DNA of 64,000 nucleotides from Okamejei kenojei (GCA_035221665.1 CM069134.1:104842001-104906000), one strand, 5' to 3'; positions 8,161 to 59,557 are shown, counted from the stretch's first letter. Numbers and translations are program-made. Notes: a model not told the origin generated them from the letters alone.

Positions 8161-8247
8161 CAGAACCACCCAAAACATCACCCATTCTTTCTCTCTGGAG
8201 ATGTTGCCTGTCTTGTTGAGATACTCCAGCTTTTTGTGTCAATCTTC
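8161..8247 (+). mobile_element. Short Penelope 3'-terminal fragment
   Basis: Matches the Penelope terminal motif (cccattc..ctggagatgttgcctg..actccagctttttgtgtc); flanked by AGCAGA(T/A)TTACAG at 8148-8160 and 8248-8260. Confidence 0.75.
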
Positions 8248-8298
8248 AGCAGAATTACAGAGATGAGGTGAGAGTGACTATTACATTTTACAGGGCAC

Positions 8299-8400
8299 AC
8301 AAAAAGCTGGAGAAACTCAGCGGGTGCAGCAGCATCTAAGGAGCGAAGGAGATAGGCGACGTTTCGGGTCGAGACCCTTCTTCAGACGCTTTAGGACCTC
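8299..8400 (-). mobile_element. ~100-bp Penelope terminal mini-element with hammerhead core
   Basis: Near-identical to the reverse complement of 13132-13222; 16-bp direct repeat ACATTTTACAGGGCAC at 8283-8298 and 8401-8416. Confidence 0.9.
8358..8385 (-). ncRNA. Minimal hammerhead ribozyme motif (Penelope-associated type)
   Basis: Minus strand CUGAAGA-A-GGGU(CUCG)ACCC-GAAA-CGUC: conserved core, stem II, GUC triplet, palindromic ACGU in place of stem III. Confidence 0.7.
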
Positions 8401-9349
8401 ACATTTTACAGGGCACCTTGATATGACACTTTGATAAATGCTGCCGTTTTGTCTAAAAAAACATGCTTTATCGGCCAAGCATTTAATGAACTTGGACACC
8501 CATTCCCCAACTTTCTTTAAATACACCCTTATAATTTTCTAATTGTTTCAATTAGCAGATCATCAGTTGAATGGATCAGATGTTTTCTTCAAATGAACTG
8601 CACTCCCAACAGTTTTCATCCCTTCTGCTTCTGAGAAAAGAGAATGGAAGGGGTTGGTTAGGCTGCAATTGGCTTTATCCTCTATTTTACAGAATGTGCA
8701 AAGCAATATAGATTTATTCATTTGTTCTGCAGCAATTTCTGACAATCTAGACAGTTTTTACCCAGCAGTAGATAACGGAAAGACATCCTGCAGTGTTTCA
8801 TAAACACAGTTCCATGGCAGGAAGAAGCTATCGCAAATTGAGCTATAATTCAATGAAGGGAAAAAGATTTTGCCTGGTTTGCACAAAACCTACTTAATTT
8901 CCCAAGAAAGCAGAGGTTTGTTTTTTTTTTGGTTCGAGAGAAGGCTGAGAAATTTTATTAACTCCCTCATTTGTGCTTTCATCATGTATTTGAGCTTCTG
9001 CTGAGCCAGAGAAAGTGCAGCAAATAATTAATTACCTTAACTGATTGCTGAATGAGAGTCATATTGGTTATGAAAATGCCAAAATCAGCACCGCATTCAC
9101 ACAGGAACTGGCATAGAGTGACACGGGCACTGAGAGCATGAGAAATCACACAGAGCCTATCATGCACTGTGAATGCTGTAGGCAATTAACCCCTACTTCT
9201 TGGTAGCATTGGCAGCAGCACGCGATAAAGCTATACTCCTACTTATTAAAGTGTCTGCAGCCAGCTCACCTGTGCTTTTCCCTGTGCAGAGTTTTGCTGT
9301 TCCCACTTCAGTGCAGCAGCAAGAAGTGAGCTGAACAATACTCTGCAGA

Positions 9350-9484
9350 GTGTTAACGAAGAAACTGCAGATGCTGGAGAATCGAGGGTTACACAAAAAG
9401 CTGGAGAAACTCAGCGGGTGCAGCAGCATCTAAGGAGCGAAGGAGATAGGCGACGTTTCGGGTCGAGACCCTTCTTCAGACTGA
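9350..9484 (-). mobile_element. Penelope terminal fragment with intact hammerhead core at 9452-9479
   Basis: Reverse complement of ~13131-13262; core gacgtttcgggtcgagacccttcttcag identical to 8358-8385. Confidence 0.88.
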
Positions 9485-10626
9485 GGATTCCTTGCATGCA
9501 AGGAATGGAAATGAGGGAGGAATTTCACTATCCATCATATAAAAGGAAGCCATCTGACACACAGACAGTGGGAGGAGTTGCAAAATAGTTGAAACCTAGG
9601 AGCAATGTCCTAGACGGAATTTGGTAATTTACCAGGTTGTCAAATTAAGAAGGTTGTTCAATTTACTTATTTTCACTGTCACAACTGTCACAAGAGTTCC
9701 CCTCCTCCACTGACCTATTTTTGGTACAACAGATTCCTTGTGATATTATTTACCTTGGCCTCATGCACTTAGAGGGCACAAGGAAATGTCACACTTGCAA
9801 TTGGCATCAAACTTGCAGTGGCAGCTATTGAACCATGACAGCCACATTATCAACATATCTCTCAAGGCTGTCGATATCACAGTTCCTGCTGTCGCACAGG
9901 AGAAAGTGGCGAATAAGACCTGCTAGCAATTCAAGAGCCTTTCACTTTCCAAGTTGCAGCCACTACAGAAAATCTCAAGGATAATAAAAATGCACTTCTA
10001 TGTAGGGTCTTTCACAACCACAAGACATTCAAAATTGTCTTGCACCCAATGAAATGAAATTGAAATGTATTTTCTATTTCAGTATACATGTGGTAGTAAT
10101 TCTGTCAGATGAGAGCTCAATACATCAGAATACATCAACACAGAGAAGTTTTCAAAGTGGAAGTACTGAAACAAAATAGACAATGGGTTATAAAAGAGAA
10201 TATGGAAAAATGTCAAAAATATGCCTGACAATTATGTTACTAGCAAAGGGATAACAAAATAAACAAAAATGTAAAACAGAGTGTAGAAACTAGGAATTGC
10301 AGAGGGTACTCAAAAGGCTGGAGAAACTCAGCGGGTGCAGCAGCATCTAAGGAGCAAAGGAGATAGGCGGTTCGAGTCGAGACCGTTCTTCAGACTGGTC
10401 AGGGATCAGGGAAACGAGAGATATAGACGGTGATGTGGAGAGATAAAGAACAATGAATGAAAGATATGCAAAAAAGTATCGATGATAAAGGGAACAAGCA
10501 TTTGTAAGCTGTTTGTGGTGTGAAAATGAGCTGGTGCGACTAGGGTGGGGGAGGGAGATAGAGAGAGTGGGAATGCCAGGGCCCGAGGGCTGAGGGAGAG
10601 GTGGGAAGGGGAGGAGACAGCAAGGG

Positions 10627-11367
10627 TTAACAGAATTGAGAAAATTCAATGTTCAAGCCCAAAGGATGCAGACTCCCCAAGCGGAATATGAGGTGCTGTT
10701 CCTCCAACTTGCGGTGTTGCTCACTCTGGCCCTGGAGGAGGACCAGGACCGAGTGGTCGGATACGGAATGGGAGGGGGAGTTGAAGTGTTGAGCCACCGG
10801 GAGGTCGGGTTGGTTAATGCGGACCGAGCGGAGGTGTTCGGCGAAACGATCGCCAAGCCTCCGCTTGGTCTCACCGATATAGATCATCTGGCATCTGGAG
10901 CAGCGGATGCAGTAGATGAGGTTGGAGGAGGTGCAGGTGAAGCTCTGTCGGACCTGGAAGGACTGCTTGGGTCCCTGAAAGGAGTGGAGGGGGGAGGTGA
11001 AGGGACAAGTGTAGCATTTCTTGCGGTTGCAAGGGAAAGTGCCCGGGGAAGGGGTAGAGCGGGAGGGAAGGGAAGAATTGACAAGGGAGTTGCGGAGGGA
11101 GCGGTCTTTGCGGAAGGAAGTCAGGGGGGGAGATGGGAAGATGTGGCGAGTGGAGGGGTCACGTTGGAGATGGTGAAACTGGTGGAGGACTATGTGTTGT
11201 ATTTGCCGGCTGGTGGGGTGAAAGGTGAGGACCAGGGGGACTCTGCCCTGTTTGCGAATGGGGGAATGGGGAGAGAGGGCAGTGTTGCGGGGTATGGAGG
11301 AGACCCTGGTGCGAGCCTCATCTATAGTGGGGGAAAGGGATTCCCGTTCTCTGAAGAATGATGCCAT
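10627..11367 (-). pseudogene. Penelope C-terminal region with GIY-YIG endonuclease
   Basis: NLIYCIRCSRCQMIYIGETKRRLGDRFAEH motif, preceded by CNRKKCYTC; separated from the RT by a CR1 insertion. Confidence 0.92.
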
Positions 11368-11383
11368 TTGTGATGACCTTGTG

Positions 11384-11752
11384 AAGGGGTTGGACAGGCT
11401 AGATGCAGGAAGATTGTTCCCGATGTTGGGGAAGTCCAGGACAAGGGGTCACAGTTTAAGGATAAGGGGGAAGTCTTTTAGGACCGAAATGAGAAAATCG
11501 TTTTTCACACAGAGAGTGGTGAATCTGTGGAATTCTCTGCCACAGAAGGTAGTTGAGGCCAGTTCGTTGGCCATATTTAAGAGGGAGTTGGATGTGGCCC
11601 TTGTGGCTGAAGGGATCAGGGGGTATGGAGTGAAGGCAGGTACAGGATACTGAGTTGGATGATCAGCCATGATCATATTGAATGGCGGTGCAGGCTCGAA
11701 GGGCCGAATGGCCTGCTCCTGCACCTAATTTCTATGTTTCTATGTTTCTATG
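11384..11752 (+). mobile_element. CR1 3' fragment inserted in Penelope
   Basis: KGLDRLDAGRLFP...FFTQRVVNLWNSLP, CR1 3'UTR, (TTCTATGT)n tail. Confidence 0.93.
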
Positions 11753-12877
11753 ATCTGGTGTGGAACACCTCATCCTGGGAGCAGATGCGGCGTAGACGGA
11801 GGAATTGGGAATAGGGGATGGAGTCCTTACAGGAAGCAGGATGGGAGGAAGAGTAGTCCAGGTAGCTGTGGGAATCAGTTGGTTTGTAGTGGATGTCGGT
11901 CAGGAGTGTATCACCTGCAATAGAGATGGTGAGGTCAAGGAATGGTAGGGAAATGTCGGAAATGGTCCAAGTGTATTTGAGTGCCTGATGGAAGTTGGTG
12001 GTGAAATGGATGAAGTTCAGTCAGTTGTGTGTGGGTGCAGGTGGTGACACCAAAGCAGTTGTCGATGTAACGGAGGTAGAGGTCGGGGATGGGGCCCTGG
12101 TACATCGAGAACAAGGATTGTTCGACATACCCGACAAAGGGGCAAGCGTAGCTGGGGCCCATGCGTGTGCCCATAGCTACGCCTTGTGTTTGGAGGAAAT
12201 GGGAGGAGTCAAAAGAGAAGTTATTGAGAGTAAGGACCAACTCCGCTAGGCGGAGGAGGGTGTCAGTGGACGGGTATGGGTTGCTCCTCTGGTCGAGGAA
12301 GAACCGGAGGGCTTTGAGACTGTCCTGGTGTGGGATGGAGTTGTAAAGTGACTGGACGTCCATGGTAAAGATGAGAGGATGGGGGCCTGGAGAATGGAAT
12401 GCACGGAGCCAACAGAGAGTGTCTGAGGTGTCTTGAACATAGGTGGGGAGGGATTTAACAAAGGGGGATAGGATGGCGTCGAGGTATGTGGAAATGTGTT
12501 CGGTGGGGCACGAACAGGCAGAGACAATGGGTCTGCCAGGGCAGTCGGGTTTGTGGATTTTGGGGAGAAGGTAAAATCAGGCCATGCGGGGCTGGGAAAC
12601 GATGAGGTTGGAGGCTTGGGGGGGTAGGGAGCCGGAGCTGATGAAGTCGGTTATGGTGCTCGAGATGGTGGCCTGGTGTTTGTCAGTGGGGTCATGGTCC
12701 AGGGGTAAACCAATTGCAGATATTGGTTTACAAAGGAAAGACACAAAATGCTGGAGGATCTTGCAGCATCCCTGGAGAACATGGACGTGTGATGTTTTTC
12801 GTCGAGACCCTTCTGCAGACCGTAAAATTGTTATATTTGTCTAGAGCAATAGAGCAACACGCAACATGTATCTGTAG

Positions 12878-13260
12878 AATGTTTCTCAATTCTGTTAACC
12901 CTTGCTGTCTCCTCCCCTTCCCACCCATCCCTCAGCCCCCGTCCCTAGCATTCCCTCTCTCTCTATCTCCCTCCCCCACCCTAGTCGCACCAGCTTCTCA
13001 TTTTCACACCACAAACAGCTTACAATGGCTTGTTCCCATTATCATCGATACTTTTTTGCATATCTCTCATTCATTGTTCTTTATCTCTCCAAATCACCGT
13101 CTATATCTCTCGTTTCCCTGATCCCTGACCAGTCTGAAGAAGGGTCTCGACCCGAAACGTCGCCTATCTCCTTCGCTCCTTAGATGCTGCTGCACCCGCT
13201 GAGTTTCTCCAGCCTTTTGTGTACCCTCGATTCTCCAACATCTGCAGTTTCTTCTTTAAC
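12878..13260 (+). mobile_element. Solo Penelope terminal repeat (pLTR) insertion
   Basis: Inverted copy of ~10304-10645; 14-bp TSD ACATGTATCTGTAG at 12864-12877 and 13261-13274. Confidence 0.92.
13134..13161 (+). ncRNA. Minimal hammerhead ribozyme motif
   Basis: CTGAAGA AGGGTCTCGACCC GAAAC GTC; predicted cleavage 3' of 13161. Confidence 0.72.
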
Positions 13261-13949
13261 ACATGTATCTGTAGTAGGTTTTCCAACCACACTGGTTTGA
13301 AACAGTCCTTATTTACTGACATTACATCCAGGTTTTGTTAGCCATTTCCTCCTGCCTTGTGTTAATTAAAATTTTAAAAGTCAAATTGCATTCTCTGCCT
13401 CAAGCCTATGACATACACAACCTCACTTGCACTGTAACTGTTTTTCCCCACAGATCTCAGAGCCATGGTTACACTTAGCTGCCCAGTGTCAAGGTTATTG
13501 CTGAGGTCTGTCATATTTCTTCAGAGTCCTGGCCCAAACCATCGCCTATCCATTCCCTCGGCAGATGCTGCCTGACCCATTAGGTTTCTCCAGCACCTTG
13601 CGTTTATCTCACAGCTTGTTGTTTGTTGTTGTATATTGAGGAAGAGAAACCATCTTCTTTTCTTTGAGCTCACAGGAGCAAGCACATCTCCCTGCTTTGT
13701 AGCCTTCCCCACTGTACGGGATGTAGCATGAGAAGAGATGTCAAGTATCCCATCACATTTTAGAAGGATGCCCTGACTCGAAAGATATGCTGGGAACCAT
13801 AAATAAAGAGGTAAAGTGAAGGACTATCAGTTTCTATATGAGGAAATATTTGTCAATCTCTGCCTGGCATACATTCAATAATTTACCTTCACAGCTAGGT
13901 TGAGAATTCTACAGATTCATAGGTTTCTGAAAGAAGGAATACCTCAGAT

Positions 13950-16305: not shown

Positions 16306-16462
16306 TGTAGATGGTTTATATATGCAACCAATAATATAGTTACCTCAGTACCATTAACCCCGCCTAGTTAACATCAATCATAACGCCTTCCCCTCCCTGG
16401 GTACAGTACAGTAGAAGAATGTAGCCAGTGCTTGATGATGTATGTAACACCTTGTTCCTATC
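16306..16462 (+). repeat. 5' LTR (3'-truncated)
   Basis: Matches 17986-18139; 4 substitutions and one 2-bp indel over the first ~145 bp. Confidence 0.95.
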
Positions 16463-17985
16463 GTGCGCCCCGCTGACCTCCTGTGCTCGCCACCCCTACG
16501 AAACAGAGGACTTGCTCATACTGGCCGTTAATTTTATTCCCACCAAGCAGCTACAGGTTTTGGCCGAGCACACCGCTGCCGATCCAGTTTTGCATCGGCT
16601 TGCCTCAGTGATTAAATCATGGTGGCCAACAAAGCGCTCCGCTGCGCCGTCTGAAACACAGCCTTTCTTCCTGGTCCGCGACGAACTGGTGCTCCAGAAT
16701 GACGTTATCGACAAGGGACATAAAGTTGTAGTCCCGTCCTCCCTATTCGAATTTTACTATTGCGCAGCCCATAGCGGACACCCTGGGGTCGACGCAACAC
16801 TCGCCCACGCTCAGTGCCAATTCTACTGGCCTGGAATGGCCAAATATATCTGCCTGCTCCACATGCAACAGACATGCTCCACACCAGCAGCGACAGCCCC
16901 TGCTGCAACAGCCCGCCCCTGCCTTGGCCTGGTCCTCGTTGGCTGCCGACATCTTCGAGTGGCGTGGTAACCACTACCTTGTCCTGGTCGACTCGTACTC
17001 AAACTGGTTCAAAGTGGATTTACTGACATCCCTCACGTCGGAGATGGTGATCCGAAAACTGCGGAAACACTTCTCCACTTTTGGGTCCCCTGTCAGGCTT
17101 TAGACTGACAACGACAGGCAGTTTACCAGCCGAGAATTCAAACGTTTTGCCGGCAAGTGGAATTTCGTGCATTTCACCAGCAGCCCAGAGTACCCAAAGA
17201 ACAACGGCCTTGCTGAACGGGCCGTCCGCAGCGCCAAGCTTCTGATGGAACAGGCTGTATTTGGATCTCCTGAACCTCAGGAATGTTTCCAGGGATCCGG
17301 CCATGGGGTCACCTGCTCAGCGTCTGATGACCAGAACAACCAGATCTACCATCCAGATTGCCCAGCGCCAGCTGCAACCTCGGGTGCTGGAACCTGCCTC
17401 CGTGCAGAGGCGAATTCAAGAGAAACATGACAGCCAGCGGCGTTCCCACGATCGGTCGTGCAGACCACTCGATCCTCTGTTGCCTGGACAGGTTGTTGGG
17501 TTGCAGACCGACAGTGGTCACTCCCGTCTGGCTACCGTGGTTGGGGTGGCCGACTCACCTCGTTCGTATCTGGTCGACTATGAGGGAACCATCTACCAAA
17601 GTAGCCGACAACACCTGCTTGCGGTTAATGAGCCGAAGCCGCAGACCCCGGGGCCCTATGCCCTGCCACTCTCGTACCAGCAGCCGGCTGCCATCCCAGC
17701 CAGTGTTCCCTGCATGCCTCGATCCCCATATCGAGCGCCCGGTTCCCCTCTGCGCGGGTCACCTGTTGCCGGTCGTGGTTCTCACTCTCCTGTTTCTCCC
17801 ACCCCACCGTCCTTCCCTGGTTCCCCTGCTGCCTCGTGTCCTCCTGTTTCTTCTGCTCTTTCGGGGGAAGGGGGAGACATCCGTAAGCGCTCGGGCCGGA
17901 TTAGTAAGCCACATGTTCGTTATGGCGATTTTGTTTAATTCTGTTGTTGTGACAACAATCTGTTTTGATTTTCTAAGGGGAAGGA

Positions 17986-18187
17986 TGTAGATTGTTTATA
18001 TGCAACCAATAATATAGTTACCTCAGTACCATTAACCCCGCCTAGTTAACATCAATCATAACGCCTTCCCTTCCCTGGGTACAGTTCAGTAGAAGAATGT
18101 AGCCAGTGCTTGATGATGCATGTAACACCCTGTGCTATCTTTAAAAGATGTTGCACACTTTAAGAGTTTGTGAATTGCTTATTTACA
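17986..18187 (+). repeat. 3' LTR (202 bp, complete)
   Basis: Starts TGTAG right after the PPT and ends TTTACA before the TSD. Confidence 0.95.
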
Positions 18188-19629: not shown

Positions 19630-21817
19630 TGGGCCTTCCCCCTCGATTAACCAGGTTACCCTGACCACACCCCACCAATACAATAGTCCTCATGCCCCCT
19701 CCTCTCAGAACAACCACCATCCTCCCACCAGACCTCGCCTCGGCCTTTATCCACTACCTGACCTCAACCCCCAACCTTGTCGTGACTTCACCATCCCCCC
19801 TGACCTCTCCCTTTCCGATACTGAACGGTCTGTTCTCAGCAGAGGCCTCACCTTCGTTCCCCTCCGCCCCCACCTCACGAGTTTGTGGTCCGCCATGACA
19901 TTGAGCCTTTCTTCCACGCCTCTACCTCCGTGACGTTTTCTATGAAGGAGTCCTCACCACCCTTCTCCCTCCTCTTGGACTTCCCAGAACAGCCTTCTAC
20001 CCTCTCTAGACTTTATTTCTAATGGCCGGCGTGACATTAACCGTCTCAACTTTTCCAACCCCTAGTATTCAAACCTCACCCCCTCTGAACGTACAGCCCT
20101 CCGCTCACTCTGCAGCAACCCTGACATTATAATCAAACCCGCCAACAGGAGAGGTGCCGTGGTAGGCTGGCTCGCTGATCTCTACCAGGCTGGGGCCAGG
20201 CGACAACTCTCACACACCTCCTCCTACTTATTCTTGGACCATGAACCCACAGACGAGTACCGGGCCTTAACTTCACACACCATTTCTGATTTCATCACTT
20301 CTGGCTGTCTGTCTTCCACAGCCTCCAACCTTATCGTTTCCCAGCCCCGCACAACCTTCTCCACAAAATCCACTAGCACAACTGCCCTGGCAGACCCATA
20401 GTTTCTGCCTGCTCCTGTCCCACGGAAATTATTTCCACGTACCTCGACTCCATCCTATACCCCCTGGTCCAATCTCTCCCGAGGTGTCCAAGATACCTCA
20501 CATGCCCTTTGTCTCTTCAACGATCTCTGCTTTCTGAGCCCCCACTCCCTCATATTTACTGTGGACGTTCAGTCACACTACACCTCCATCCCCCACCAGG
20601 AAGGCCTTAAACCCCTCTGTTTCTTCCTTGACCGCAGAACCATCCAATTTCCCTCAGCTATCACTCAACTCCGCCTAACGGAGCTTGTCCATCTCTCAAC
20701 AACTTCTCCTTGGACACCTCCCACTTCCTCCAAGGCGTAGCTATGGGCCCCAGTTACGCCTGCCTCTTTGTAGGGTACGTTGAATAATCCTTATTCCAGG
20801 CATACACTGGCCCTATCCCTGCACTCTTTCAATTACATTGATGACTGCATCGGTGCTACCTCCTGCACCCATGCAGAACTCATGGACTTCATCAACTTCA
20901 CCACCAATTTTCATCCTGCACGCAAATTGGACTATCTCTGACACCCCTGTCCCCTTTCTTGATTTCACAGTCTCCATCACAGGAAAATAGACTGACGTCT
21001 ATTACAAACCCACTGACTCTCACAACTATCTCGACTACACTTCTTCCCACCCTGCATCCTGCAAAGACTCTATCCCTACTCCCAATTCCTCCATCTGCGC
21101 CGCATCTGCGCCCAAGATGAGTTGTTCCATACCAGGTCATCTAAGATGTCCTCATTCTTAAGGGAACGGGATTCCCATCTCCCATCATAGATGAGGCCTT
21201 GACATGTGTCTCCTTGGTATCCCGCTGCTCCGCCCTTACTACCCCTCTCCCTAGTTGCTTCAGAGACAGAGTCCCCCAAGTCCTTACCTTCCACCCCATC
21301 AGCCGCCGTATACAACACATAATCCGCCGAAATTTCAATGGGATACCACCACTAGCCACATTTTCCCATCTTCCCCCCCCATCCGCCTTCTGCAGAGATC
21401 GTTTCCTCCGCAAATCCCTGGTTAACATCCTTTCCCACCAAAACCACCCCCTCCCCTGGTACCTTCCACTGCAACCGCAGAAGATGCAACACTTGTCGCT
21501 CTACCTCCTCCTTTGACTCTGTCCTGGAACACTGACAGTCCTTTCAGGTTAGGCAGAGATTCACCTGCACCTCCTCCAACCTCATCTACTGTATCTGTTT
21601 TTCAAAATGTCGACTCTTATACATCAGAGAAGACCAAATGTAGACGGGGTGAAACTTTCGCGGAACAACTTCGCTCAGCCCGCCTGAACCTACCTGACAT
21701 CTGTTTGCCGGACACTTTAATTCTCCTTCTCATTCCTACACAGAAATTTCTGTCCTCCGTCTCCTCCATTGTCAGAGTGAGCATAAATGCAAATTGGAGG
21801 AACAGCATCTCATATTT
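19630..21817 (+). mobile_element. Degraded Penelope element; 3' end continues at 24751-24904 and 25544-25630
   Basis: LSDTERSVLSRGLTFVP N-terminal motif, RT remnants (gacgttcagtca, caaggcgtagctatggg, tacattgatgac), GIY-YIG remnant up to EEQHLIF; resumes as gcagcgcaatggtatgaatattga after the CR1. Confidence 0.9.
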
Positions 21818-24750
21818 CATAGAAACATAGAAACATAGATAATAGGTGCAGGAGTAGGCCATTCGGCCCTTTGAGCCAGCACAGCCATTCATTGTGATCA
21901 TGACTGATCGTTCCCTATCAATAACGCGTGCCTGCCTTCTCCCCATATCCCTTGACTCCACTAGCCCCTAGAGCTCTATCTAACTCTCTCTTAAATCCAT
22001 CCAGTGATTTGGCCTCCACTGCCCTCTGTGGCAGGGAATTCCATAAATTCACAACTCTCTGGGTGAAAAAGTTTTTTTCTCACCTCAGTCTTAAATGACC
22101 TCCCCTTTATTCTAAGACTGTGGCCCCTGGTTCTTGACTCGCCCAACATTGGGAACATTTTTCCTGCATCTAGCTTGTCCAGTCCTTTTATAATTTTATA
22201 TGTTTCTATAAGATTCCCCCCTCACCCTTCTAAACTCCAGTGAATACAAGCCTAGTCTTTTCAATCTTTCCTCATATGACCGTTCCGCCATCCCAGGGAT
22301 CAATCTCGTGAATCTACGCTGCACTGCCTCAATCATAAGGATGTCCTTCCTCAAATTAGGAGACAAAACTATACACAATACTCCAGATGTGGTCTCACCA
22401 GAGCCCTACACAACTGCAGAAGAACCTCATTACTCCTGTATTGAAATCCTCTTGTTATGAATGCCAACTTTCTTCACTGCCTGTTGTACCTGTAAGCCAT
22501 CTTTCAATGACCGGTGTACAAGCACGCCCAGGTCTCATTGCACCTCCCCCTTACCTAATCTAACCCCATTGAGATAATAATCTGCCCCCTTGGTTTTACA
22601 ATAAAGTGGATAACCTCATATTTATCTGTATTATACTGCATCTACCACACATCTGCCCACTCACTCAACCTGTCCAGGTCACCCTGCAACCTCCTAACAT
22701 CCTCTTCACAGTTCACACTGACACCCAGCTTTGTGTCATCTGCAAACTTGCTAGTGTTGCTCCTAATTCCCTCTTCCAAATCTTTAATATATATGGTAAA
22801 CAGTTGCGTTCCCAACACCGAGCCTTGCGGCATTCCACTCGCCACTGCCTGCCATTCTGAAAAGGATCCGTTCACTCCTACTCTTTGCTACTGGTCTGCC
22901 AACAAATTTTCTATCCATGTCAACACCCTACCCCGAATACCATGTGCTCTAATTTTAGTCACCAGTCTCCCGTGCAGAACCTTATCAAAGGCTTTCTGAA
23001 AGTCTAGATACACTACATCCACTGGCACCCCTTCATCCATTTTACTTGTCACATCTTCAAAAAAATCCAGAAGATTAGTCAAGCATGATTTCCCTTTCAT
23101 AAATCCATGTTGACTTGGACTAATCCTTTTACTGCTATCCAAATGCCCCATTATTACCTCTTTAATAATTGACTCCAGCATCTTTCCTACCACCGAAGTC
23201 AGGCTAACTGGTCTGTAATTCCCTGTTTTCTCTCTCGCTCCTTTCTTGAAAAGTGGGATAACATTAGCTATCCTCCAATCCACAGGAACTGATCCTGAAT
23301 CTATTGAACATTGGAAAATGATCACCAATGCGTCCACTATTTCTAGAGCCACCTTCCTGAGGACCCTGGGATGCAGACCATCAGGCACAGGGGATTTATC
23401 ATCCTTTAGTCCCATTAGCCTACCCAATACTATTTCTCGCCTAATGAAAATTTCTTTCAGTTCCTCTACCCCCTTAGATCCTCTGTCCTCCAGTACATCT
23501 GGGAGATTGTTTGTGTCTTTCTTAGTGAAGACAGACCCGAAGTACCTATTCAACTCTTCTGCCATTTCCTTGTTGCCCATAATAATTTCACCCATGTCTG
23601 CCTTTAAGGGACCCACATTTGACTTTGCTACCCTTTTTCCCTTAACATATCTAAAGAAGCTTTTACTGTCCTTCTTTATATTCCTGGCCTTAGAAACATA
23701 GAAACGCAGGAGTTTCAGCCCTTCGAGCCTTTCAATATGATCATGGCTGATCATACTCAGTACCCGTACCTGCCTTCTCTCCATACCCTCTGATTCCAAC
23801 TCACTCTTAAATATAGCCAATGAACTTTCTGTGGCAGAGAGTTCCAGAGACTCACCACTTCTTCCCTTCATACTTCATCTTTTCAGCCTATATTGCCCGT
23901 TTTGTTTCCTTCTGTTGTCCTATGAATGTTTCCCAATCCTCTGGCTTCCGACTACTCTTTGCTGTGTTTTACATCTTTTCTTTTAGTTTTATGCTATCCC
24001 TAAATTCTCTTGTCAGCCACGGTTGCCTCCTACTCACCTTAGAATCTTTCTTCCTTTTTGGAATGAAATGATCCTGCGTCTTCCAGATTAAGCCCAGAAA
24101 TTCCTGCCATTGCTGTTCCACCGTCATTCCTGCTAGGATCTCTTTCCAGTCTACATGGCCAGTTCCCCTCTGTTCAACTGCATCACTGCCACTTCCGATT
24201 TAATGTTCACCTTCTCAAACTGCAGATTAAAACTAATCATATTATTATCACTACCTCCAAGGTATCATATTATATTATTATCACTATCTCCTTTACCTCA
24301 TCAGTCCCTATGTCTTCCCTCGCAAGGGACTGAATTCCATCCCTCACAAGCAGAGCTATCACCCCTCCTCTGCCCACCTGCCTGTCCTTTCTATAGGATG
24401 TATAACCTTGAATATTAAGTTCCCAGGCCCGATCCTCCTGCAGCCACGTCTCAGTAATCCCCACAATGAAATATCTACCAACCTCTAACTGAGCCTCAAG
24501 CTCATCTACTTTACTTCTTATACTTCGCACATTCATATACAATACTTTTAATTCCTTACGCATCTCACCTTTCACATCGATCCCCATTACACTTGGCCAT
24601 ACTCTCCTATCCCTTTGTGAGCTTCCTTTCCCGTTAATCCTGGGGTCATTAACTATCCCATTACTCTCTTTCCCTTTAACTCCATCCTCGACTATCCCAT
24701 TTGACACCCCAACCCCCTTATTCAGTTTAAAACCACCCATATAGCAGTAG
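21818..24750 (-). mobile_element. CR1 LINE, near-complete ORF2 with deletions and frameshifts
   Basis: (CATAGAAA)n tail at 21818; RT ORFs 22642-22875 (PQGSVLG, FADD) and 22888-23690; APE endonuclease start LYMNVRSI..GITETWL in ORF 24270-24836. Confidence 0.95.
23691..23860 (-). mobile_element. Short deleted CR1 3' fragment nested in CR1
   Basis: tagaaacatagaaac tail plus 3'UTR pieces interrupting host ttcctggcc|cttcccttcatacttc. Confidence 0.8.
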
Positions 24751-24904
24751 CAACTTGCAGCGCAATGGTATGAATATTGATTCTCGCTATCCCTCCCCCA
24801 CCCAAGTCGGACTAGCTTCTCGATTTCACCCCACAAATAGCTAACAATGGCCTGTTTTGTTTATAATTGTTACTTTTTGCATATCTTTTATACATTGTTC
24901 CTTA

Positions 24905-25543
24905 GGGGCCTGTCCCACTTACATGTCCTTGGCATGCAAATTACATGACCTTGTGGTCACGTTGAGGCATACGGGCATCTTATGGCCGCGCGAGGCCGGT
25001 CCCACTTAGAAGCGTGGAGGGGTATGTAGTTGTGCGCGACATCATGCGGGGCTCAGAAATTTTTGTAGTGAACAAAATCTTCGCGCGCCAACGGCCTGTC
25101 GCGGAACTGAGGGCCAAAGTGGGACAAGCCCAAAACCCTGGCGCGACACAACGTCTCACCTTCAACAGCAGCAGAAGCAGGCAAACGATTGCTGAACTCG
25201 GCCTGGGGATCACTGCCGTTACGGTCCAAAATGCAGGTGTAACTCAGCGGGACCGGCAGCATATCTGGAGAGAAGCAATGGGTGACGTTTCGGGTCAAGA
25301 CCCTACCTTTCAGACTGAAGAAGAGTCTCGACACGAAACATCACTCATTCCTTCTCTCCAGAGATGCTGCCGGTCCTGCTGATTTACTCCAGCTTTGTGT
25401 CCATCTTCAAATGACGTCACGCGCTCCAGATGGCTGTGCGTATGCATGTAATCGAGCCCGACCTTCGCCGGACCATCGCGGCTCAATGTCACCACGAGGT
25501 CGCGTAATTTGCATGCCAAGGACACGTAAGTTGGACAGGCCCT
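24905..25543. mobile_element. PIF/Harbinger-type MITE inserted in a Penelope terminal region
   Basis: ~50-bp TIRs (GGGGCCTGTCCCACTTACATGTCCTTGGCATGCAAATTAC / GTAATTTGCATGCCAAGGACACGTAAGTTGGACAGGCCCT); TTA TSD at 24902-24904 and 25544-25546. Confidence 0.9.
25228..25409. mobile_element. Head-to-head pair of Penelope termini inside the MITE
   Basis: Inverted arms around TCAG-A-CTGA (25310-25318); hammerhead-like core on each strand. Confidence 0.85.
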
Positions 25544-26334
25544 TTACTCTCCACGTCATAGTTTATCTCTCTCATTTCCCTTATCCCTAACCAATCTGAA
25601 GAAGGGTCTTGACCCAAAATGCTACCCATTCCAGGCCTGTATGAAACTTTTCAATAAGAGGGGTGGCATGACAGAATTACAAAAAAAATATGTTAAATAA
25701 TGTGCGCACAGCGCACATCATGAGCGCGAAACCCCTCGCGGCTGGGGTCTAGGGCCTGCTTAAGTGGTTTTAGATGCTCTCTGGTGCATTCAGATCATTA
25801 TTTTGGAGCATTTCTGCACCAAATTTATGACCAATATTTCAGAATAATTTTGGTTGAGTCAAGAGTAACGAGTGAGGGGGAATAGGATGATTGGGGTCAT
25901 TGTTGTATACATTTAAAAAAAATCAGGAATTGAAGTTGTACTTTTGTAAAATGTTATGTAAAATGTTATAAAGGAGCATGCAAAAACTGCAAGTAAAATA
26001 CTGTAAGTTATGTAGTAAAGAAAACCTTTTTTAGAAAATGTTTTGTGTGTTGATTTGATTGCCTGTTACTGTTAGACTATGTTAGTGTGTGCAGTGCACT
26101 ATTAATGGTCCTCCTGACCTATCAACTTCACATCACATGCAACATTTAGTTCTACTTCTATTTCCATGAAATTGTGCATGACATTACTATGATTGCTTTC
26201 AAACTAACCTATTTTATTGTCATACTATTATAACAAATTCTAGTTCCATGATGACTCATAAACAAGATCACAAATCACAAACAGCCCAACAAACCAGACC
26301 ACACATCCATTAGGGTTGCTTTAGCGTCTTGCAA

Positions 26335-29640: not shown

Positions 29641-30570
29641 TTAAATGGAACCCAAAACAGTAGGCCCAAACCGTGGCACTGCCTGAACAGGTTTATCATA
29701 AAAATGAGAAAAAGTTGACTCTCTAGACCACCTTACGGCCAAGATGATTTGATCTAGCGGCATGTCCTGAGCCTTCGCCGCGGATGTAGACGCCCCCCTG
29801 GTGGAGTGAGATTTAAACACATCAGTGTCGATTCCCGCAGAACTGAGAATCTGTTTCAACCATCTAGAAATAGTTTGTAGTGACACTTGCTTACATGGCT
29901 TTTTGTGACTAATGAGCAGTCCTGTCTCAGAACCTCTCAGACTCCTTGTTAACGCAATATATTGGGTTAAATGTTAAACTACACATAACAGTTGGTCAAC
30001 AGGATATGCTTTAAACGTCACCTTGATTCCTGACCTTCCTGGTCTACTTTGTTTGATTAAATCACAGACATAAAATGTAATATCATCTTGAGAGAAATGC
30101 ATATAATCTATTCTTAACAAGTGCAATGTTTGTTCACGTTGTGCTGAAACCAACGCCATTAACATAACCACTTTAAGAGTCAATTTTTGCAAAGATAATG
30201 ACGCAATTGGTGCCCATTGCCGAAGCAGTGTGAGAACTATACTGATATCCCAGATTGCTGTGTATCTGGGTTGAGGAGGGTTTTTGTTAAAAATTCCTCT
30301 CATAAACCTGGATACCAATGGATGAGACCCGATAGGTTGTCGTGCTGAAGACTGCCCTAAATAAGAGGACAAAGCACTGCGAGCAGTGTTAATAGCACTA
30401 TAACTAAGATGCTCATCAAAATGTAAAGTAGCAAGGAACTCCAACACATCACGTACACTAGCAGTATCATATGATATATTAGATTGTACACAGAACAGTT
30501 CCCATTTCTTAATGTGCACGAGGTATTGTTTTTTAGTGCTAGTTCTCCAGCCTGCAGTCATAACCTCCAT
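29641..30570 (-). pseudogene. DIRS tyrosine recombinase (split)
   Basis: WRTSTKKQY, YSAINTARSAL, HPLV.RF, ALVSAQR, HSTRGASTS, WS..STF..FY across ORFs 29974-30570 and 29641-29886. Confidence 0.93.
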
Positions 30571-30608
30571 GGTCCTGTTCGATAAACCAAGCCCTTGGAA
30601 TGGTCTGG

Positions 30609-31369
30609 TCAGAACCTGCAGACCAATAAATTGATACGGTCATGTAATGGGTGACTTTCTCCTGTAACCGGATGCACCAACAAATGACTGCCGCTGGGAA
30701 TCCTCATGAATGGCTGTGCCATCATTTTCAGTACCAATGGGAACCATGATTGTGTTGGCCAATCTGGGACCACCAAAACACCTGTGGTGGAGTCACGCTC
30801 TATTTTGGTGAGACATTTTGCAATCAGGCAGAATGGAGGAAACGCATAAAAGAATGAGTGTCCCCAGTGTAACGAGAATGCATCCACAGCTACTGTACCT
30901 GAATCTGACTCCCAGGAGACATATTTAGGCATCTGGTGATTCAGTCTGGATGCAAAGAGATCAATATCTGGCAATCCAAATCGAGTAACAATGGTTTGAA
31001 ATATGCTGACATTCAACATCCATTCTATATTGTCATTAAACTTTCTCGACCTAAGGTCAGCTACCACATTATCTATACCTGGTAGATAGATGGCTGAAAC
31101 CCAGGTGTTCCGCGAAATACGCCAATGCCAGATAGTATTAGCCAAGTTATCACATAACACAGATCTAGCTCCTCCTATATGATTAATATATGCCACAGCT
31201 GTGGTGTTATCAATCTGGAGTTGAACGTGGAAATCAGACATTATGGAGAAATATGCTTTTAACCCATAAAAAGCACCCAATAATTCCAGATAATTAATAC
31301 CATGTGTGTGAAGAAGCAAGTCCTCTTGCTCAGTCCATCTACCCCCACAGCTAGACTCTGTGTCTGTAG

Positions 31370-31401
<32 letters not shown>

Positions 31402-31636: not shown

Positions 31637-31703
31637 TTTCCCAATGACCTTTGCAACGTCTCGGATGGAAGGATAAAGATTTTGTGTAATACCAATAGAG
31701 ACA

Positions 31704-32500: not shown

Positions 32501-32549
32501 TAACCTGAACACAAAGTCCCTGTACCTCTGCTGGTGGTTTGGAAAACTG

Positions 32550-37281: not shown

Positions 37282-37489
37282 AGAAGATAGACACAAAAAG
37301 CTGGAGTAACTCAGCGGGACAGGCAACATCTCTGGAGAGAAGGAATGGGTGATGTTTCGAGTCGGGACCCTTCTTCAGACTGTCAGGGGAGAGGGACTAG
37401 AGATATGGAAGGGTAAGGTCTGAAAACCACAGATCAAAGTTTACGATGACCAAGGGAAGGCAGAATGGCTCGCTTCAAGATGACAACAC
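37282..37489 (-). mobile_element. Penelope terminal fragment with hammerhead-like core at 37351-37378
   Basis: Minus CTGAAGAAGGGTCCCGACTCGAAACATC; flanking repeat TTCA(G/A)GAACACATAAAG at 37265-37281 and 37490-37506. Confidence 0.85.
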
Positions 37490-41645: not shown

Positions 41646-42639
41646 CTAAATTTCCTGACAGTTGCAGGTCAATCTTCCCCACTGCCCTCGCTCTCCACCC
41701 TCCTTCAACCACACCCCCCCCCTTCCTCCACCAAAAGTCAGCTAACTAGTTCCACAGTTAGCACCCTCTTGGGCTGACACCTGTCTCCAGCCAACAGTCA
41801 GCCTATCAGGGCACCTCCTTTCCTGAGGTCATCTGTTACCAGCCCCAATTTGTCCTCTTTTTTCTTCAGTTCCTGTCCCACTCTCTCTCTCCTAGAATCA
41901 GTCCAAAGAAGGGTCTTGGCCTGAAATGTCACCTGTCCATTTTCTCCAGAGATGGTGCCTGACCAGCTGAGTTACTCCAGCATTTTAAGTCTATCTTTGG
42001 GATAGCATCAGCACATAATTTTCATTATATTTATTTTGCTACCAAAAGCCTTCTTTATCCAGTCAACTTGTAACCACTTTCAGAGAAGTATGTACTTTTA
42101 CTCCTTGATCTTTCTGCTTTACAACACTCCCTGGGTCTTCACATGAAGATATTGCCCTGGTTTGGCTTCCAAAATTATCTTTTTGAATTAAACTCCTTTA
42201 GCCATTCTTCAGCCCACTTGCCTGGCTAATCAAGCTCTCACTGTAACTCTTGATAACTATCGTCATTGTCTACTATACCACCTGCTCTGCAAACTTACTA
42301 ATCATGCCTTGTACATTCTCAACCAATTAAATATGATTTGCTTCTATAACAATGTTCAAATAGAATTTATCATTCATTCATATTTCATTTTTACATATGT
42401 CTAACAGTTTTACTGTAACTCTCTCAGACTATCTGGGAATGTGCTTATTTACTAATATTTCAAGCTTTTGGAACTGAGTGACCTGCTTAGAATGTAGGAA
42501 TAAATTTATGACTTAGAAGGAAAATATAACTCATGTCTAGGTTTTGCCACAATCAAAAGAAAAGGAATATAAGGAATATACGCAGTACAGGTTATCCTTT
42601 TTGAATTCTATAATAAGTAAAAAAGTAGGAAGGTTAAAA

Positions 42640-47282: not shown

Positions 47283-47375
47283 TGAAGATAGACACAAAAA
47301 GCTGGAGTAACTCAGCGGGACAGGCAGCATCTCTGGAGAGAAGGAATGGGTGACGTTTCGGGTCGTGACCCTTCG
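47283..47375 (-). mobile_element. Penelope terminal fragment, hammerhead truncated before CUGA
   Basis: gaagatagacacaaaaagctggagtaactcagcggg..gacgtttcgggtcgtgacccttc. Confidence 0.85.
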
Positions 47376-48351
47376 TGAGACACAGATTCAGTGCCAGCCT
47401 TCAACAGCACTCAACCCTTTACATCCGCATTTTCCAAATTCTCACTTTTCAAGTCTCGGCAAATTCATTAGAACATCCCTACAGCTGTTATCTGCTAAAT
47501 CAAAAATAGTCTCCCAATCCTCACACATGGATGGAAGATTTCAATGGGTTAGATGGCATCTATAGAGAGAAATAGTCCAGCCTAGATGAAGGGTCTTGAC
47601 CAAAAACACCTCTTGTCATCATCTTCCTCAAATAAACATTGTTAACTTTGTATTTACCAAGACCATCATGCTTTCTCACTCATGACATACTGCTCAATTT
47701 CACATTATTAAATACAAGAGTCGTAGATTTGAAAGACTAACCATCCATTTCTGGGTATGGCTAGGCTATATTAAGTACTGTTAAAATTGATTACTATTCA
47801 AACGGGATAATGGAAAGATAATCCCTGGCTGCTGTTTCCTATCACTGAACTCCTTCTGAACCTCTGCTACCTTCTTCACTGCCAACAAGTACAAGGGTTC
47901 ATAAATTATTTTGTCTCAGTGATCCAGACTATTTGTTCATTTGTTGATTTTGTTTCTTTCTTTTTCCCCTTCCCTACTGGACTAAACCCTGCAAATGAAA
48001 ATCAAGAAAACTGCAGATATGGGAAACCTGAAGAATAACTTGAAACAGAAAATGCTGGGAACATTCAATAGGTCAGGCAGCGTCTGTGGGAACGTAAACT
48101 GTGTTAACATTTCAGGTTAAAGAATCTTTGTCTGAACTGGGGAACCTCCTGTCAAAGGATGTTCAGCCATAAATATATGGGTTGCCTTAACGGCCGGAAC
48201 TGGGTTTCGGAGAAAGGTTTTTTTTGCAGCTGGAGCTAGGGTCAGGGATAAGTTTGGGGTCAGGAATACTGGGATTCAGGAATTTGGAGAGGCTTGACGC
48301 CAGAACTAGGGTCAGAAACATGAGTAATTGGGCTCACAATTCTGTTCTTTG

Positions 48352-49730
48352 CTGAAGATAGATACAAAGTGCTGGAGCAACTCAATGGGTCAGGCAGCAT
48401 CTCTGGCGAAAAAGGATGAGTGACGTTGCGGGTTGCAACCATTTGTCAGACTTCAGAACTAGAAGAAGGGTCCCGACCTAAAACATCATCCTTCTTCTCC
48501 ACAGATGCTGCCTGACCTGCTGAGCTATTTGACCGCAGAACCAACCAATCCCCGTCTACTGATACTCTCCTCCTCCTAGGGGAGCTGGTCCTTACCCTTA
48601 TTGTTTTCATTTGACTGCTCCCATTTCCTCCAAAAACAAAGGATGCTCATGGGCCCTAGCTATGCCTGCCTCTTTGTAGGGTACGTCGAACAATCTTTAT
48701 TTGAGGCGTACTGTGGACCTATCCCTGAACTCGACTTCCGCTACATCGACGACTGCGTTGGTGCTACCTCCTGCACCCACACACAACTCACTGACTTCAT
48801 CCATTTCACCACTAACTTCCATCTTGCACTCAAATACACCTGGAACATTTCCGACATTTCCCTACCATTTCTTGACCTCACTATCTCCATCACAGGCGAT
48901 AGACTACTGACCGACATCCACTATAAACCCACTGACTCGCATGGCTATCTGGATTACACTTCTTCCCACCCTGCTTTGTGTAAGGACTCCATCCCCTACT
49001 CCGCATTCCTCCGTCTATGCCGCATCTGCACCCAGGAAGAGTTGTACTTCACCAGGGCATCGGAGTTGTCCTCATTCTTCAGGGAACAGGGGTTCCCCTC
49101 TTCTGCTATAGATGAGGCTCTCACCCGGGTCTCCTCTGTACCCCGTGACTCTGCTCTCACTCCCCATCCCCCCACTCATAACAAGGGCAGAGTGCCCTTC
49201 TCCTCACCTTCCACCCTACCAGCCGCCACATACAACATATAATCCTCCGACATTTTCAACACCTCCAATGTGATCCCACCACTTGCCACATCTTTCTATC
49301 TCCATCCCCCCGTCTGCTTTCCACAGAGACTGCTCCCTCCGTAACTCCCTTGTCAATTCGTCCCCTCCCACCCGAACCACCCCCTCTCCGGGCACTTTCC
49401 CTTGCAACGACAGGAAATGCTGCACTTGTCACTTTTCCTCCCCCCTTGACTCCATTCAAGGACCCAAGCAATCTTTCCAGATGCGGCAGAGGTTCACCTG
49501 CACCTCCTCCAACCTCATCTATTTCACCGCTGCTCTAGATGTCAGCTGCTCTACATCGGTGAGACTAAGCGTTGGCTTGGCGTTCGCTTCGCCGAACACC
49601 TCCACTCGGTTCGCAATAAACAACCTGATCTCCCGGTGGCTCAGCACTTCAACTGCTCCTCCCATTCTGAATCCGACCTTTCTGTCCTGGGCCTCCTCCA
49701 TGGCCAGAGTGAGGACCACAGTAAATTGGA
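48352..49730 (+). mobile_element. Penelope fragment (RT + GIY-YIG) preceded by an inverted pair of termini
   Basis: MGPSYA, FRYIDD, FLD (48601-49242); CNDRKCCTC, tacatcggtgagact (YIGET); inverted termini at 48352-48530. Confidence 0.92.
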
Positions 49731-50824: not shown

Positions 50825-52055
50825 TCTATCTATGCAATAACTAAAACTCTCATCTTGTCCTCTTCCGGTTTGTGATGTTCTTAAATTTGTGCAAAATGGT
50901 ACCTGATAGCGCTACGATCTTTAGCCACATTACCCACCGTTTTCCTGTGTTCCAAGCCAATCAAATTTTCTTCTGATCGGTGGAAACATACAAAAGTTAC
51001 GAAGGTTTAAAAAATCGTAAGATCAGCAGATTCGTCTTCTCTCCTGTCAGTCACCAGGACGGCAGCTCCCCTTCCGGCACCCGCTGTCAATCACCGGGGA
51101 GCGGAGAATGAAGCCCCAGAGGCCGAGAGTGAGTGCAGAAAGTCGTGAGTCGGTCAGTGAGTCCAGAAAGCCGTGACTCGGCCAGTGAGCCCAGAAAGCC
51201 GTGATTCGGCAAGTGAGTCCAGAAAACCGTGATTTGGCCAGTGTGTCCAGAAAGCCGCGATTGAGTCCGGAAAGCCGCGAGTGAGCCCGGAAAGCCGCCA
51301 GTGAGTCCGGAATGCCGCCAGTGAGTCCGGAAAGCCACGAGTGAGTGCGAAAAGCCGTGAGTGAGTCCAGAAAGCCTTGAGTCAGTGAGTGTCCAGAAAG
51401 CCGTGATTCCAGAAAGCCATGAGTGCGTCAAGAAAATCGTGAGCGAGTCTGGAAAGTCGTGAGTCAGGGAGTGTCCAGAAAACCGTGAGTTCTGAAAACC
51501 ATGAGCGAGTCTGGAAAGCCGTGCGTGTGTCCAGAAAGCCGTGCGTCAGTGAGTCCAGAAAGCCGTGCGTCAGTGAGTCCAGAAAGCCGTGAGTCAGTGA
51601 GTCGGGAAAGCCGTGAGTCTGTGAGCAAGTACAGAAAACCGTGAGTCAGTGAATGAGTCCAGAAAGCCTTGAGTCAGTGAGCGAGTCCAAAACCGTGAGT
51701 AAGCGAGCAGTCCAGAAAGCCGTGAGTCCGTGAGGGAGTCCAAAGCCGTGAGTCAGTGAGTGTCCAGAAAGCCGCGAGCATGTCCAGAAAGCCGTGAGCC
51801 CAGAAAGCCGTGCGTCAATGAGTGAGTCCAGAAAGCCTTGAGTCAGTGAGTGTCCAGAAAGCCTTGAGTGAGTCCAGAAAGCCACGAGTGAATCTGAAGA
51901 AGGGTCTCAACCCGGAAAGTTGCCTATTTCCTTCTCTCCATAGATGCTGCCACACCCGCTGAGTTTCTCCAGCATTTTTGTCTACCTATTTTCCAGCATC
52001 TGCAGTTCCTTCTTAAACAGTGAGTCCAGAAAGCCGTGCATCCGTGAGTGAGTCT
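50825..52055 (+). mobile_element. Helitron 5' portion carrying a minisatellite
   Basis: A|TCTAT..ACTAAAACTCTCATCTTG start shared with 55785; no 3' hairpin/CTAG found. Confidence 0.6.
51125..52053. repeat. Degenerate minisatellite, ~20-28-bp unit (GTGAGTCCAGAAAGCCGTGAGTCA)
   Basis: Dozens of AGAAAGCCG/GTGAGT copies; interrupted by a Penelope terminus at ~51893-52018. Confidence 0.95.
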
Positions 52056-58290: not shown

Positions 58291-59557
58291 TGAGGCATTA
58301 TTGATTCCACCATTCCTAAGGTCATCTGCTGCCAGTCCAGATTGTTCCTGTCTTTTCTCGCTTTAAGTCCAATCCACCCCACCTCTATCATTCAGTCTGA
58401 AGAAAGGTTCCGATCTAATATGTCACCAAGTCCTTCTCTCCAGAGATGCTGTCTGATCCACGGAGTTACTCCAGCATATTTTTGTCTGACTTATATATAT
58501 GTTGTATGTTTGTCTTTTTCTTTTGCTTTTCTCCATTAAAGAGGGAAGATAACATAAATTACATATTTAAAATTGGGTTGGCGCCACTTTTAAGTATCAT
58601 GTAATCAATACTGCCTGTGATATTATTGCAACCATGTTAAAGATAGTACATTCCAGCCAATCTCTGTCTGTATATGCGTTGGGAATCTGCCTACATATGG
58701 GTTGATTATTTTCCTTATCTATTCCTATTATAAGATACCTTTATTGTTAATTTAAAACCAAATTATCCTTTATCACCCTACTGAGTGAACCAAAGTAAGA
58801 CACTAGATATCCTTTGAAAATTTAGAACTGTACTGTTTGGAAATATGTGAGCTTTTGGAAGAGTGCAGTGTTAGTCACAGTAAACTGGTAGTTTAAGTCC
58901 TGAAGGAAATAGTTCTCTTGAGAGCAATATCCAGTTGAGTACATTATTGAGAAGGTCTACAATAATAGTGATGAAGACCATTAACCAGCACAATGGAGCT
59001 TATTCATGACTTACCTGGTCAATTTCTAATGCACCATTGCCTGCAGTTCAAATTGTTCAATGTGAAAATTCTTCTCAAAGTGAGCCAGGAAATAAGGCAC
59101 CTTAAAATCATCCAAACGTATAAGATAATATTATATCATAATCAGCATTGCAAATCTTCATTCTTGCTGTTTCCTGAAAGGAAAGAAATGGCTAAAGAAA
59201 TAATCAGTATGATGTTGGTTTGCACCCGGGTCAAAAACTATGAAAGTAGTTGGAGATTCTGAACCATATTATGGCTCGATTTTTCTTGTGGAATTTGGTG
59301 ACTCCGAGTCATCTTTTGTTTACTGAGAAACTACACACCACCCATAAATATGTTACTAAAGTAACTCTGTTGAATCTCAGCATTCAAGTAACACTGAGCG
59401 TGTAGTAATCACTCAGTCATGGATGAGCTAGTCATTGAGGCTGGATGGTCAAGACAGCTTTCAGCACAGTGGCCTTCATCAATCAGAGTGTTGAGTATAG
59501 AAGTTTGGGGGTCCAGTTGCAGTTTTATAGGATATTGGTGAGGCCACATTTAGAATA

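Follow-up and report, generated by a model that had tools for sequence, protein, structure and literature searches.

Short hammerhead-bearing termini of a Penelope-like element in Okamejei kenojei and a preferred 5' boundary at the ribozyme edge

A 64-kb window of the Okamejei kenojei genome (GCA_035221665.1 CM069134.1:104842001-104906000; all results refer to this window, and its positions are used throughout) contains many short repeats built around a 28-nt hammerhead ribozyme motif. By sequence, the carrier of this motif is the 3' pseudo-long terminal repeat (pLTR) of a Penelope-like element (PLE), probably of the Neptune type. The 5' ends of the copies are not random: 7 of 20 insertion events begin within a 6-nt zone at -4 to +1 of the first base of the hammerhead core. 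The explanation that we favor, and to which we give somewhat better than even chances as a whole, is that these units are pLTR termini made directly from RNA of the autonomous family and not a separate non-autonomous class, with reverse transcription starting inside the RNA and running off at a fixed RNA 5' end.

A motif search of the window located exact copies at 8358-8385(-), 9452-9479(-) and 13134-13161(+), precisely where an earlier note on this DNA had placed them (copies are referred to below by a window position, as in 8385 for the first of these). Allowing three mismatches added three further copies, with no matches in 100 shuffled sequences. A profile trained on 13 aligned copies, which match by construction, gave 25 matches at E<=1 and 21 at E<1e-4, with none in the reversed window, and recovered every variant position that had been listed earlier; the density is approximately one terminus per 3 kb within the window. 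At least three subfamilies with unrelated upstream sequences are represented, namely family A, family B and a third subfamily. A generic minimal-hammerhead descriptor found only the three intact motifs, as compared to a mean of 0.07 in 60 Markov controls. The check with hammerhead models in Infernal that the note had proposed turned out negative: the Rfam covariance models returned no hammerhead match at E<=1 in the window or at E<=10 in 13090-13270, a result that is uninformative about minimal variants. Exact-pattern scans of bacterial and archaeal genomes did not find the motif.

For the analysis of 5' ends, the 25 matches were reduced to 21 events by counting each of four inverted pairs (two clear and two weak) as one event, and 48118 was dropped on account of its ambiguous 5' context, leaving 20. 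Events were scored as strict when the upstream sequence of the subfamily is known or when an inversion defines the junction. The seven events that start at the core, six of them strict, are 8385, 9479, 51894, 47379, 12818 and the pairs at 25314 and 48455; they span two subfamilies and include the junctions of two head-to-head pairs, of which the 25314 pair shares exactly the middle base of the quasi-palindrome found at the boundary (Table 1), a pattern that annealing of two cDNA ends or folding back of one would produce. Within family A, where 10393 and 13134 supply the upstream sequence, three of the six events start at -4 to +1. The remaining 13 events comprise six that reach at least 89 nt into native upstream sequence and seven that begin inside the unit (+10 to +46). 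No 5' end among the 20 events was located at +29, the start of the cleavage product. Five old termini (2045, 27476, 36461, 47572 and 38296) start at about +38 to +46, approximately 10-18 nt past the predicted cleavage site; these may represent a second, weaker cluster, or trimmed cleavage products. An initial count of about 10 core-start copies, obtained with a single-query BLAST search, was rejected when subfamily-specific upstream sequence was found. Under exponential truncation, the probability of finding six strict events of 20 in this fixed 6-nt window ranges from 6e-7 to 8e-5 for mean lengths of 300 to 60 nt, and that of a cluster of six in any 6-nt window is 0.058, 0.008, 0.002 and 5e-5 at mean lengths of 60, 100, 150 and 300 nt, respectively. 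The boundary zone is both initiator-like and acceptor-like (CAG followed by T) when set beside the consensus sequences of initiators and exon ends.

The 3' ends of family A lie at either +89 or +127 from the first base of the core, the difference being an optional tail of 38 nt, and the longer 3' end is situated 118 nt past the beginning of stem II. In three of the five copies folded, the tail can pair with an upstream AGAUGCUG box (+48 to +55); we infer that this domain serves as the start signal for reverse transcriptase (RT). The arrangement is like that of Poseidon from Anolis carolinensis, in which the hammerhead precedes the 3' end by about 120 nt, two 3' ends bracket a tail of 30-40 nt, RT initiates 111-118 nt past the beginning of stem II with the tail lying between two RT starts, and insertion into the element's own pLTR is seen (Frangieh et al., 2024, PMC11167929; here and below, comparisons with the literature draw on the accessible portions of the sources). 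Poseidon belongs to a different clade, the linker of the skate element pointing to the Neptune type, and its open reading frame (ORF) starts at stem II (PMC11167929), while the candidate ATG here is at about +50 (+50/+51; 13184(+) and equivalents). This ATG opens a frame of 15-30 codons that is kept across subfamilies, and it may be either the start of the ORF or a by-product of the RNA stem. Subfamily differences in its first ten codons change amino acids, the named relatives stop short of the N-terminus, and a peptide search in another frame gave two unnamed matches among four candidates.

Target-site duplications (TSDs) were examined in 21 copies and reached at least 13 bp in four, as compared to a chance level of 2.2% of 1000 random positions (at least 13 bp, at most one mismatch). 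All four had been described earlier and were found at the same coordinates. Inserts flanked by TSDs form a length series of 87, 102, 208, 383 and 2408 bp, and the TSDs together with the PLE-type 3' ends bear out the proposal that these units were mobilized by the PLE machinery. The description of the carriers as essentially non-coding holds for several solo copies but not for 12878-13260, which keeps approximately the last seven codons of the ORF, followed by a pyrimidine-rich 3' untranslated region, the hammerhead, the stem-loop domain and the tail; nor do all of the variants stand as solo units, as 10393, 25596 and 48460 belong to long or ORF-bearing copies.

Individual junctions revealed further features. 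In the 102-bp terminus, the source of the 13 bases at 8388-8400(-), between the TSD and the element, was not found in the window. The terminus at 9352-9483(-) has no TSD; close to its 5' junction is a perfect 20-bp palindrome (9487-9506), and its 3' end is overlapped by a near-perfect one of 18 bp (approximately 9337-9354), which suggests hairpin or fold-back repair. The 47379 terminus is without the upstream sequence that 37378 carries. A 9-bp repeat at 47275-47283/47962-47970 was rejected as its TSD, with 25.6% expected by chance (at least 9 bp, one mismatch); this repeat would define an insert of 678 bp with 578 nt of non-element sequence on the 5' side of 47379. The range given for the 5' boundary of 51894 is caused by microhomology with the satellite unit, its host being a degenerate array of 20-28-bp satellite at 51128-52050. 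The 41903 terminus is not core-started, because its upstream sequence recurs in the 58397 copy. The head-to-head pair at 25314 is contained in an element resembling a miniature inverted-repeat transposable element (MITE), located at about 24905-25541 with inverted ends of about 60 bp, which splits an older pLTR.

The motif itself is, by sequence, a minimal hammerhead of the PLE type, in agreement with the identification first made. Its core, one extra base before G10.1, the G10.1-C11.1 pair, and the palindromic positions 15.2-16.2 in a stem III that reads ACGU all match the minimal hammerheads of metazoan PLEs, which have an extra base between 9 and 10.1, a palindromic 15.2-16.2 and a helix I of typically 4-5 bp (Cervera and de la Pena, 2014, PMC4209133). 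Stem II has 4 bp with a 4-nt loop, unlike the 7-8 bp of Schistosoma (PMC4209133), and cleavage is predicted 3' of 13161 (+28). Both the descriptor and the alignment upheld the caveat raised previously that stem I has only 2 bp (U-A in family B, U-G in family A), short of the 4-5 bp that characterize PLE hammerheads; a 2-bp helix I has a precedent in D. virilis, and the published minimal hammerheads are poor cleavers (PMC4209133). The Anolis hammerhead works only with protein, and insertion in vitro does not depend on it, ribozyme mutants still being inserted (PMC11167929). Among the aligned copies, all 13 scored core positions are intact in 5 of 15, and stem II is 91.7% paired. Comparing the conservation of the core with that of its flanks gave a divided answer: the differences between families A and B amount to 1/28 positions in the motif versus 11/54 downstream (p=0.036), which is weak sequence-level evidence for selection on the hammerhead in active lineages, whereas single inserted copies decay alike in the catalytic core (5/116) and outside it (20/482). 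Covariation in the aligned copies was not above that of shuffles (67/500), and the folding z-scores were unremarkable.

The parent element was recognized from a broken RT/GIY-YIG frame at 10304-12711(-), the motif being located about 230 nt past its stop codon. The RT remnant (11938-12576) has RTs of the cartilaginous fishes Chiloscyllium, Mobula, Stegostoma and Amblyraja as its best matches, at 64-73% identity, and a weak Pfam RVT_1 match under the curated cut-off. A GIY-YIG-type motif, YCI..C..C..IYIGET, is visible in the translation of 10627-11448(-), for which a Pfam search of the ORF assigned no family. Inspection by eye of the translation between RT and the endonuclease (EN) revealed a Cys-rich linker motif, PC....C..C; a Zn-finger-like Cys-rich linker at this location is common to Neptune and Nematis, and because of its presence Neptune is the likely clade label for this PLE. 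Other PLE traits present are the optional tail, inverted copies, 5' truncation and variable TSD length (9-17 bp). Three ORF remnants are found in the window, two of which end in the 10393 and 25596 termini, while the third is headed by the 48460 terminus, spanning 48460-48529(+) from the core start to about +70. The 2408-bp copy at 10304-12711 is broken up by a CR1-like fragment (approximately 11380-11750) and is flanked by a 9-bp TSD ending in ATT (10295-10303/12712-12720). The insertion site of this long family-A copy is the tail of an older solo terminus with matching orientation; hence solo ends can be re-targeted, as has been proposed for Poseidon (PMC11167929). The nested insertion at 10281-12820(-) rebuilds a pLTR-ORF-pLTR layout out of two unrelated copies. 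The remnant at 19630-25632 is split by CR1-like (approximately 21817-24749) and MITE-like (approximately 24905-25541) inserts.

In the mechanism that we favor, the GIY-YIG domain would nick the target DNA, and RT would start within the RNA, 89 or 127 nt downstream of the first base of the core. Part of the cDNAs would end at scattered points as a result of ordinary truncation, and a large share would end at -4 to +1, most likely because the template RNA begins there, at an initiator-like transcription start in the pLTR. With such a template 5' end, RT in the 5' pLTR would run off after approximately 90-130 nt, and the short cDNA, joined alone to the target, would leave a solo terminus. A cDNA end that anneals via CAG-W-CTG to a second cDNA, or folds back, would yield a head-to-head pair. 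Ribozyme cleavage would not set the boundaries, and the inserted short copies would be dead ends under neutral decay and possible landing sites. What the sequences show directly is the identity with the 3' ends of RT/GIY-YIG copies, the TSDs, the two fixed 3' ends and the length series of the inserts. The composite at 48354-49730 fits this mechanism, as it is an ORF-bearing insertion with a 5' pLTR starting at the core and preceded by an inverted copy. We further put forward, only tentatively and as a possibility that we would sooner doubt than accept, that the PLE template RNA truly begins at the 5' edge of the ribozyme; the short copies would then be integrated 'strong-stop' cDNAs, a dimeric PLE protein would prime two of them, one on each strand of a break, these would anneal via the conserved CAG-W-CTG, and the solo copies would be landing pads. 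If true, strong-stop synthesis would explain head-to-head pLTRs from sense templates, without antisense self-priming, and landing on solo termini would restore the pLTR-ORF-pLTR arrangement that expression requires, as at 10304-12820.

Several observations weigh against a run-off at a fixed RNA 5' end. The 5' boundaries were assigned by eye from alignments, for 20 events in one window, and a clear TSD accompanies just one of the seven core-start events. Between subfamilies, homology sets in precisely at the core, and this makes old copies look more clustered than they are; indeed, 41903 and 58397 seemed to be core-started until their upstream sequences were compared, and proved to be artefacts. 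The A at -3 that would be expected for full run-off to an initiator A is found in only three of six single junctions, and a duplex calculation returned a pairing different from the one proposed for the cDNA ends. Ordinary random 5' truncation, with a peak produced by the inter-subfamily homology edge, microhomologies and small numbers, is a reading that we hold to be unlikely. PLEs are mostly 5'-truncated, leaving single minimal hammerheads genome-wide (PMC4209133), the 13 other events do start elsewhere, and at a mean length of 60 nt a cluster of six arises somewhere in 5.8% of simulations; however, so short a mean is itself unlikely, because 6 of the 20 events extend at least 89 nt upstream of the core, and random truncation also has to contend with half of the events in family A, whose upstream sequence is known, falling in the zone and with two inversion junctions that pivot at the same spot. 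The boundary could also be a 3' splice site, consisting of a pyrimidine tract and CAG then T, with RNA spliced to a first exon of the element or to a host exon as the template, so that homology would end at the acceptor; for this we likewise see a small chance. In five of six copies with native upstream sequence, from three subfamilies, CAG occupies -4 to -2 before T at -1; AG occurs just six times in the 256 nt of family-A upstream sequence; and G is found at -2 in five of six single junctions, as in exon ends. In D. virilis, Penelope starts farther upstream, by 46 nt plus a 75-nt intron, and that intron terminates at the 5' end of helix I (PMC4209133), which favors a splice-related reading of the same spot. 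Yet the pyrimidine tract is ordinary (58% of 20-mers there have at least 15 pyrimidines), the sequences 5' of the junctions vary from copy to copy without matching any PLE sequence in the window, the element directly adjoins satellite at 51894, and PLEs are known to retain introns.

The earlier note had regarded the short copies as a class of their own, similar to short interspersed elements (SINEs) or retrozymes. Such a non-autonomous class, with its own source genes, processing by the ribozyme and mobilization in trans, is not supported as distinct by the sequence comparisons, and we judge it improbable. It would account for the fixed ends, which define a uniform unit of 90-130 nt whose ribozyme is intact, for a SINE-like density of one copy per 3 kb, and for one base that 8385 and 9479 share and that is missing from both longer family-A copies; PLE-derived retrozymes and non-autonomous PLEs do exist. 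However, the shared base may be ancestral, because family B has it too. Tandem arrays of the unit were absent (0/30 rows of Tandem Repeats Finder, this window only), no boundary falls at +28/+29, and a tRNA gene search together with Rfam at gathering level gave no tRNA-derived or other RNA polymerase III head. The 8385 and 9479 termini are identical over 89 nt, and each differs at 1/89 nt from the ORF-linked 13134; core-start copies were monophyletic in 0% of 200 bootstrap trees, with two or more label changes required on well-supported branches, and the tree placed 47379 nearest to 37378, a copy with upstream sequence. Since the short copies are non-monophyletic, close to ORF-linked copies, non-tandem and part of a continuous length series with TSDs, the boundary appears to reflect how the element copies itself and not one source gene. 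Another account invokes DNA recombination between two pLTRs after insertion, in the manner of solo LTRs, such that the fixed 5' end is that of the full-length insertion. This would accommodate a fixed 5' end plus a TSD, and the solo pLTRs of rotifers have been suggested to stem from recombination or deletion (PMC3846280), but it too seems improbable given the very young age of 8385 and 9479 (0 differences), a common repeat of only about 90-130 nt, the occurrence of head-to-head pairs without an ORF, and the length series of TSD-flanked inserts.

Solo pLTRs, single-motif minimal hammerheads and inverted pairs are already known for PLEs. Single minimal hammerheads tied to truncated PLEs, opposite-strand pairs nearby, and Neptune elements of fishes were reported in 2014 (Cervera and de la Pena, PMC4209133); in the one supplement of that paper searched, there was no shark or skate entry. 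Penelope of the rotifer Adineta vaga has solo pLTRs and head-to-head inverted pLTRs with palindromic junctions, TSDs (8-10 bp) and tails, as observed here, and self-priming on an antisense template was proposed for its inverted pLTRs (Arkhipova et al., 2013, PMC3846280). Unlike the A. vaga pLTRs, which are 193-218 bp and rare, those described here are 90-130 bp and abundant, and pivot at the 5' edge of the ribozyme. Non-LTR retrozymes are similar in being non-coding and PLE-derived, with a type I hammerhead, dispersed monomers and larger TSDs (PMC7229834; Li et al., bioRxiv 10.64898/2026.07.22.740005). They are, however, defined by head-to-tail tandem units yielding circular RNA (PMC7229834), and no such tandem units are present in the window. 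The 2026 preprint traces animal retrozymes to pLTRs and gives counts of solo monomers; one chondrichthyan is among its cases (bioRxiv 10.64898/2026.07.22.740005). A preferred 5' breakpoint at the ribozyme edge was not found in the accessible portions of PMC4209133, PMC11167929, PMC3846280, PMC8557442, PMC8969392, PMC6765202, PMC7229834, PMC2377424, PMC5680766 and bioRxiv 10.64898/2026.07.22.740005, and subscription papers, repeat databases or supplements may describe one.

Table 1. Coordinates of hammerhead-bearing termini, parent-element copies and sequence features in the window.
Feature	Position	Strand	Flanks or basis
Minimal type I hammerhead motif	13134..13161	+	CUGAAGA, GAAA, C17; descriptor and comparison with Cervera and de la Pena, 2014
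Preferred 5' boundary zone, -4 to +1	13129..13136	+	quasi-palindrome CAG-T-CTG; also 5' strand of stem I
Optional tail, 38 nt	13223..13260	+	in 13134, 9479 and 51894; not in 8385
5'-truncated family-A copy, 383 bp (13134)	12878..13260	+	14-bp exact TSD, 12864-12877/13261-13274
Solo terminus without tail, 102 bp (8385), element from -2	8299..8400	-	16-bp exact TSD, 8283-8298/8401-8416
Older terminus, 87 bp, beginning within stem II	8161..8247	+	13-bp TSD, 1 mismatch, 8148-8160/8248-8260
Solo terminus with tail, 132 bp (9479), from -4	9352..9483	-	junction palindromes
Older degenerate solo terminus (12818), from -2	12712..12820	-	remaining tail at 10281-10294, beyond long insertion
Head-to-head pair of termini, no ORF, within MITE-like element	25226..25409	.	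single axis base 25314 in CAG-W-CTG
Family-B terminus, 208 bp (37378), 111 nt of upstream sequence	37282..37489	-	17-bp TSD, 1 mismatch, 37265-37281/37490-37506
Family-B solo terminus, 98 bp (47379), from -2	47284..47381	-	nearest relative 37378
Family-A-like solo terminus with tail (51894), 5' end -3 to +1	51891..52018	+	within satellite array
Third-subfamily terminus (41903), about 90 nt of upstream sequence common with 58397	41814..41998	+	alignment
Third-subfamily terminus (58397), upstream sequence common with 41903	58307..58485	+	alignment
5'-truncated broken PLE (RT, Cys-rich linker, GIY-YIG, 3' pLTR with damaged hammerhead at 10393)	10304..12711	-	ORF, protein search
Old long PLE remnant, 3' pLTR with 25596 hammerhead variant	19630..25632	+	alignment
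Composite: inverted terminus 48354-48453(-), terminus 48460-48529(+), then RT-EN remnant	48354..49730	.	alignment

Other mobile elements were also observed in the window. At 59641-62325(-), an open frame of 894 codons with apurinic/apyrimidinic endonuclease and RT domains is CR1-like and apparently recent. Broken frames at 29641-33788(-) include integrase SAM-like and RT-like parts, and we take these to be consistent with a DIRS-type element. Broken integrase remnants resembling those of LTR retrotransposons are located at 16425-17990 and 43579-44639(+), the Pfam search having covered 43579-44445.

As a catalogue, the present set is of modest value: one PLE family of a chondrichthyan, numerous solo ends, and a minimal hammerhead of the kind to be expected. 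Its interest lies in the fixed 5' breakpoint, which bears on how pLTRs and head-to-head inversions form. This breakpoint can be pursued by computation, because a density of about one terminus per 3 kb should mean very many junctions genome-wide. A uniform, 'SINE-like' ribozyme repeat can arise straight from an autonomous element, which bears on repeat annotation and on the counting of retrozyme monomers.

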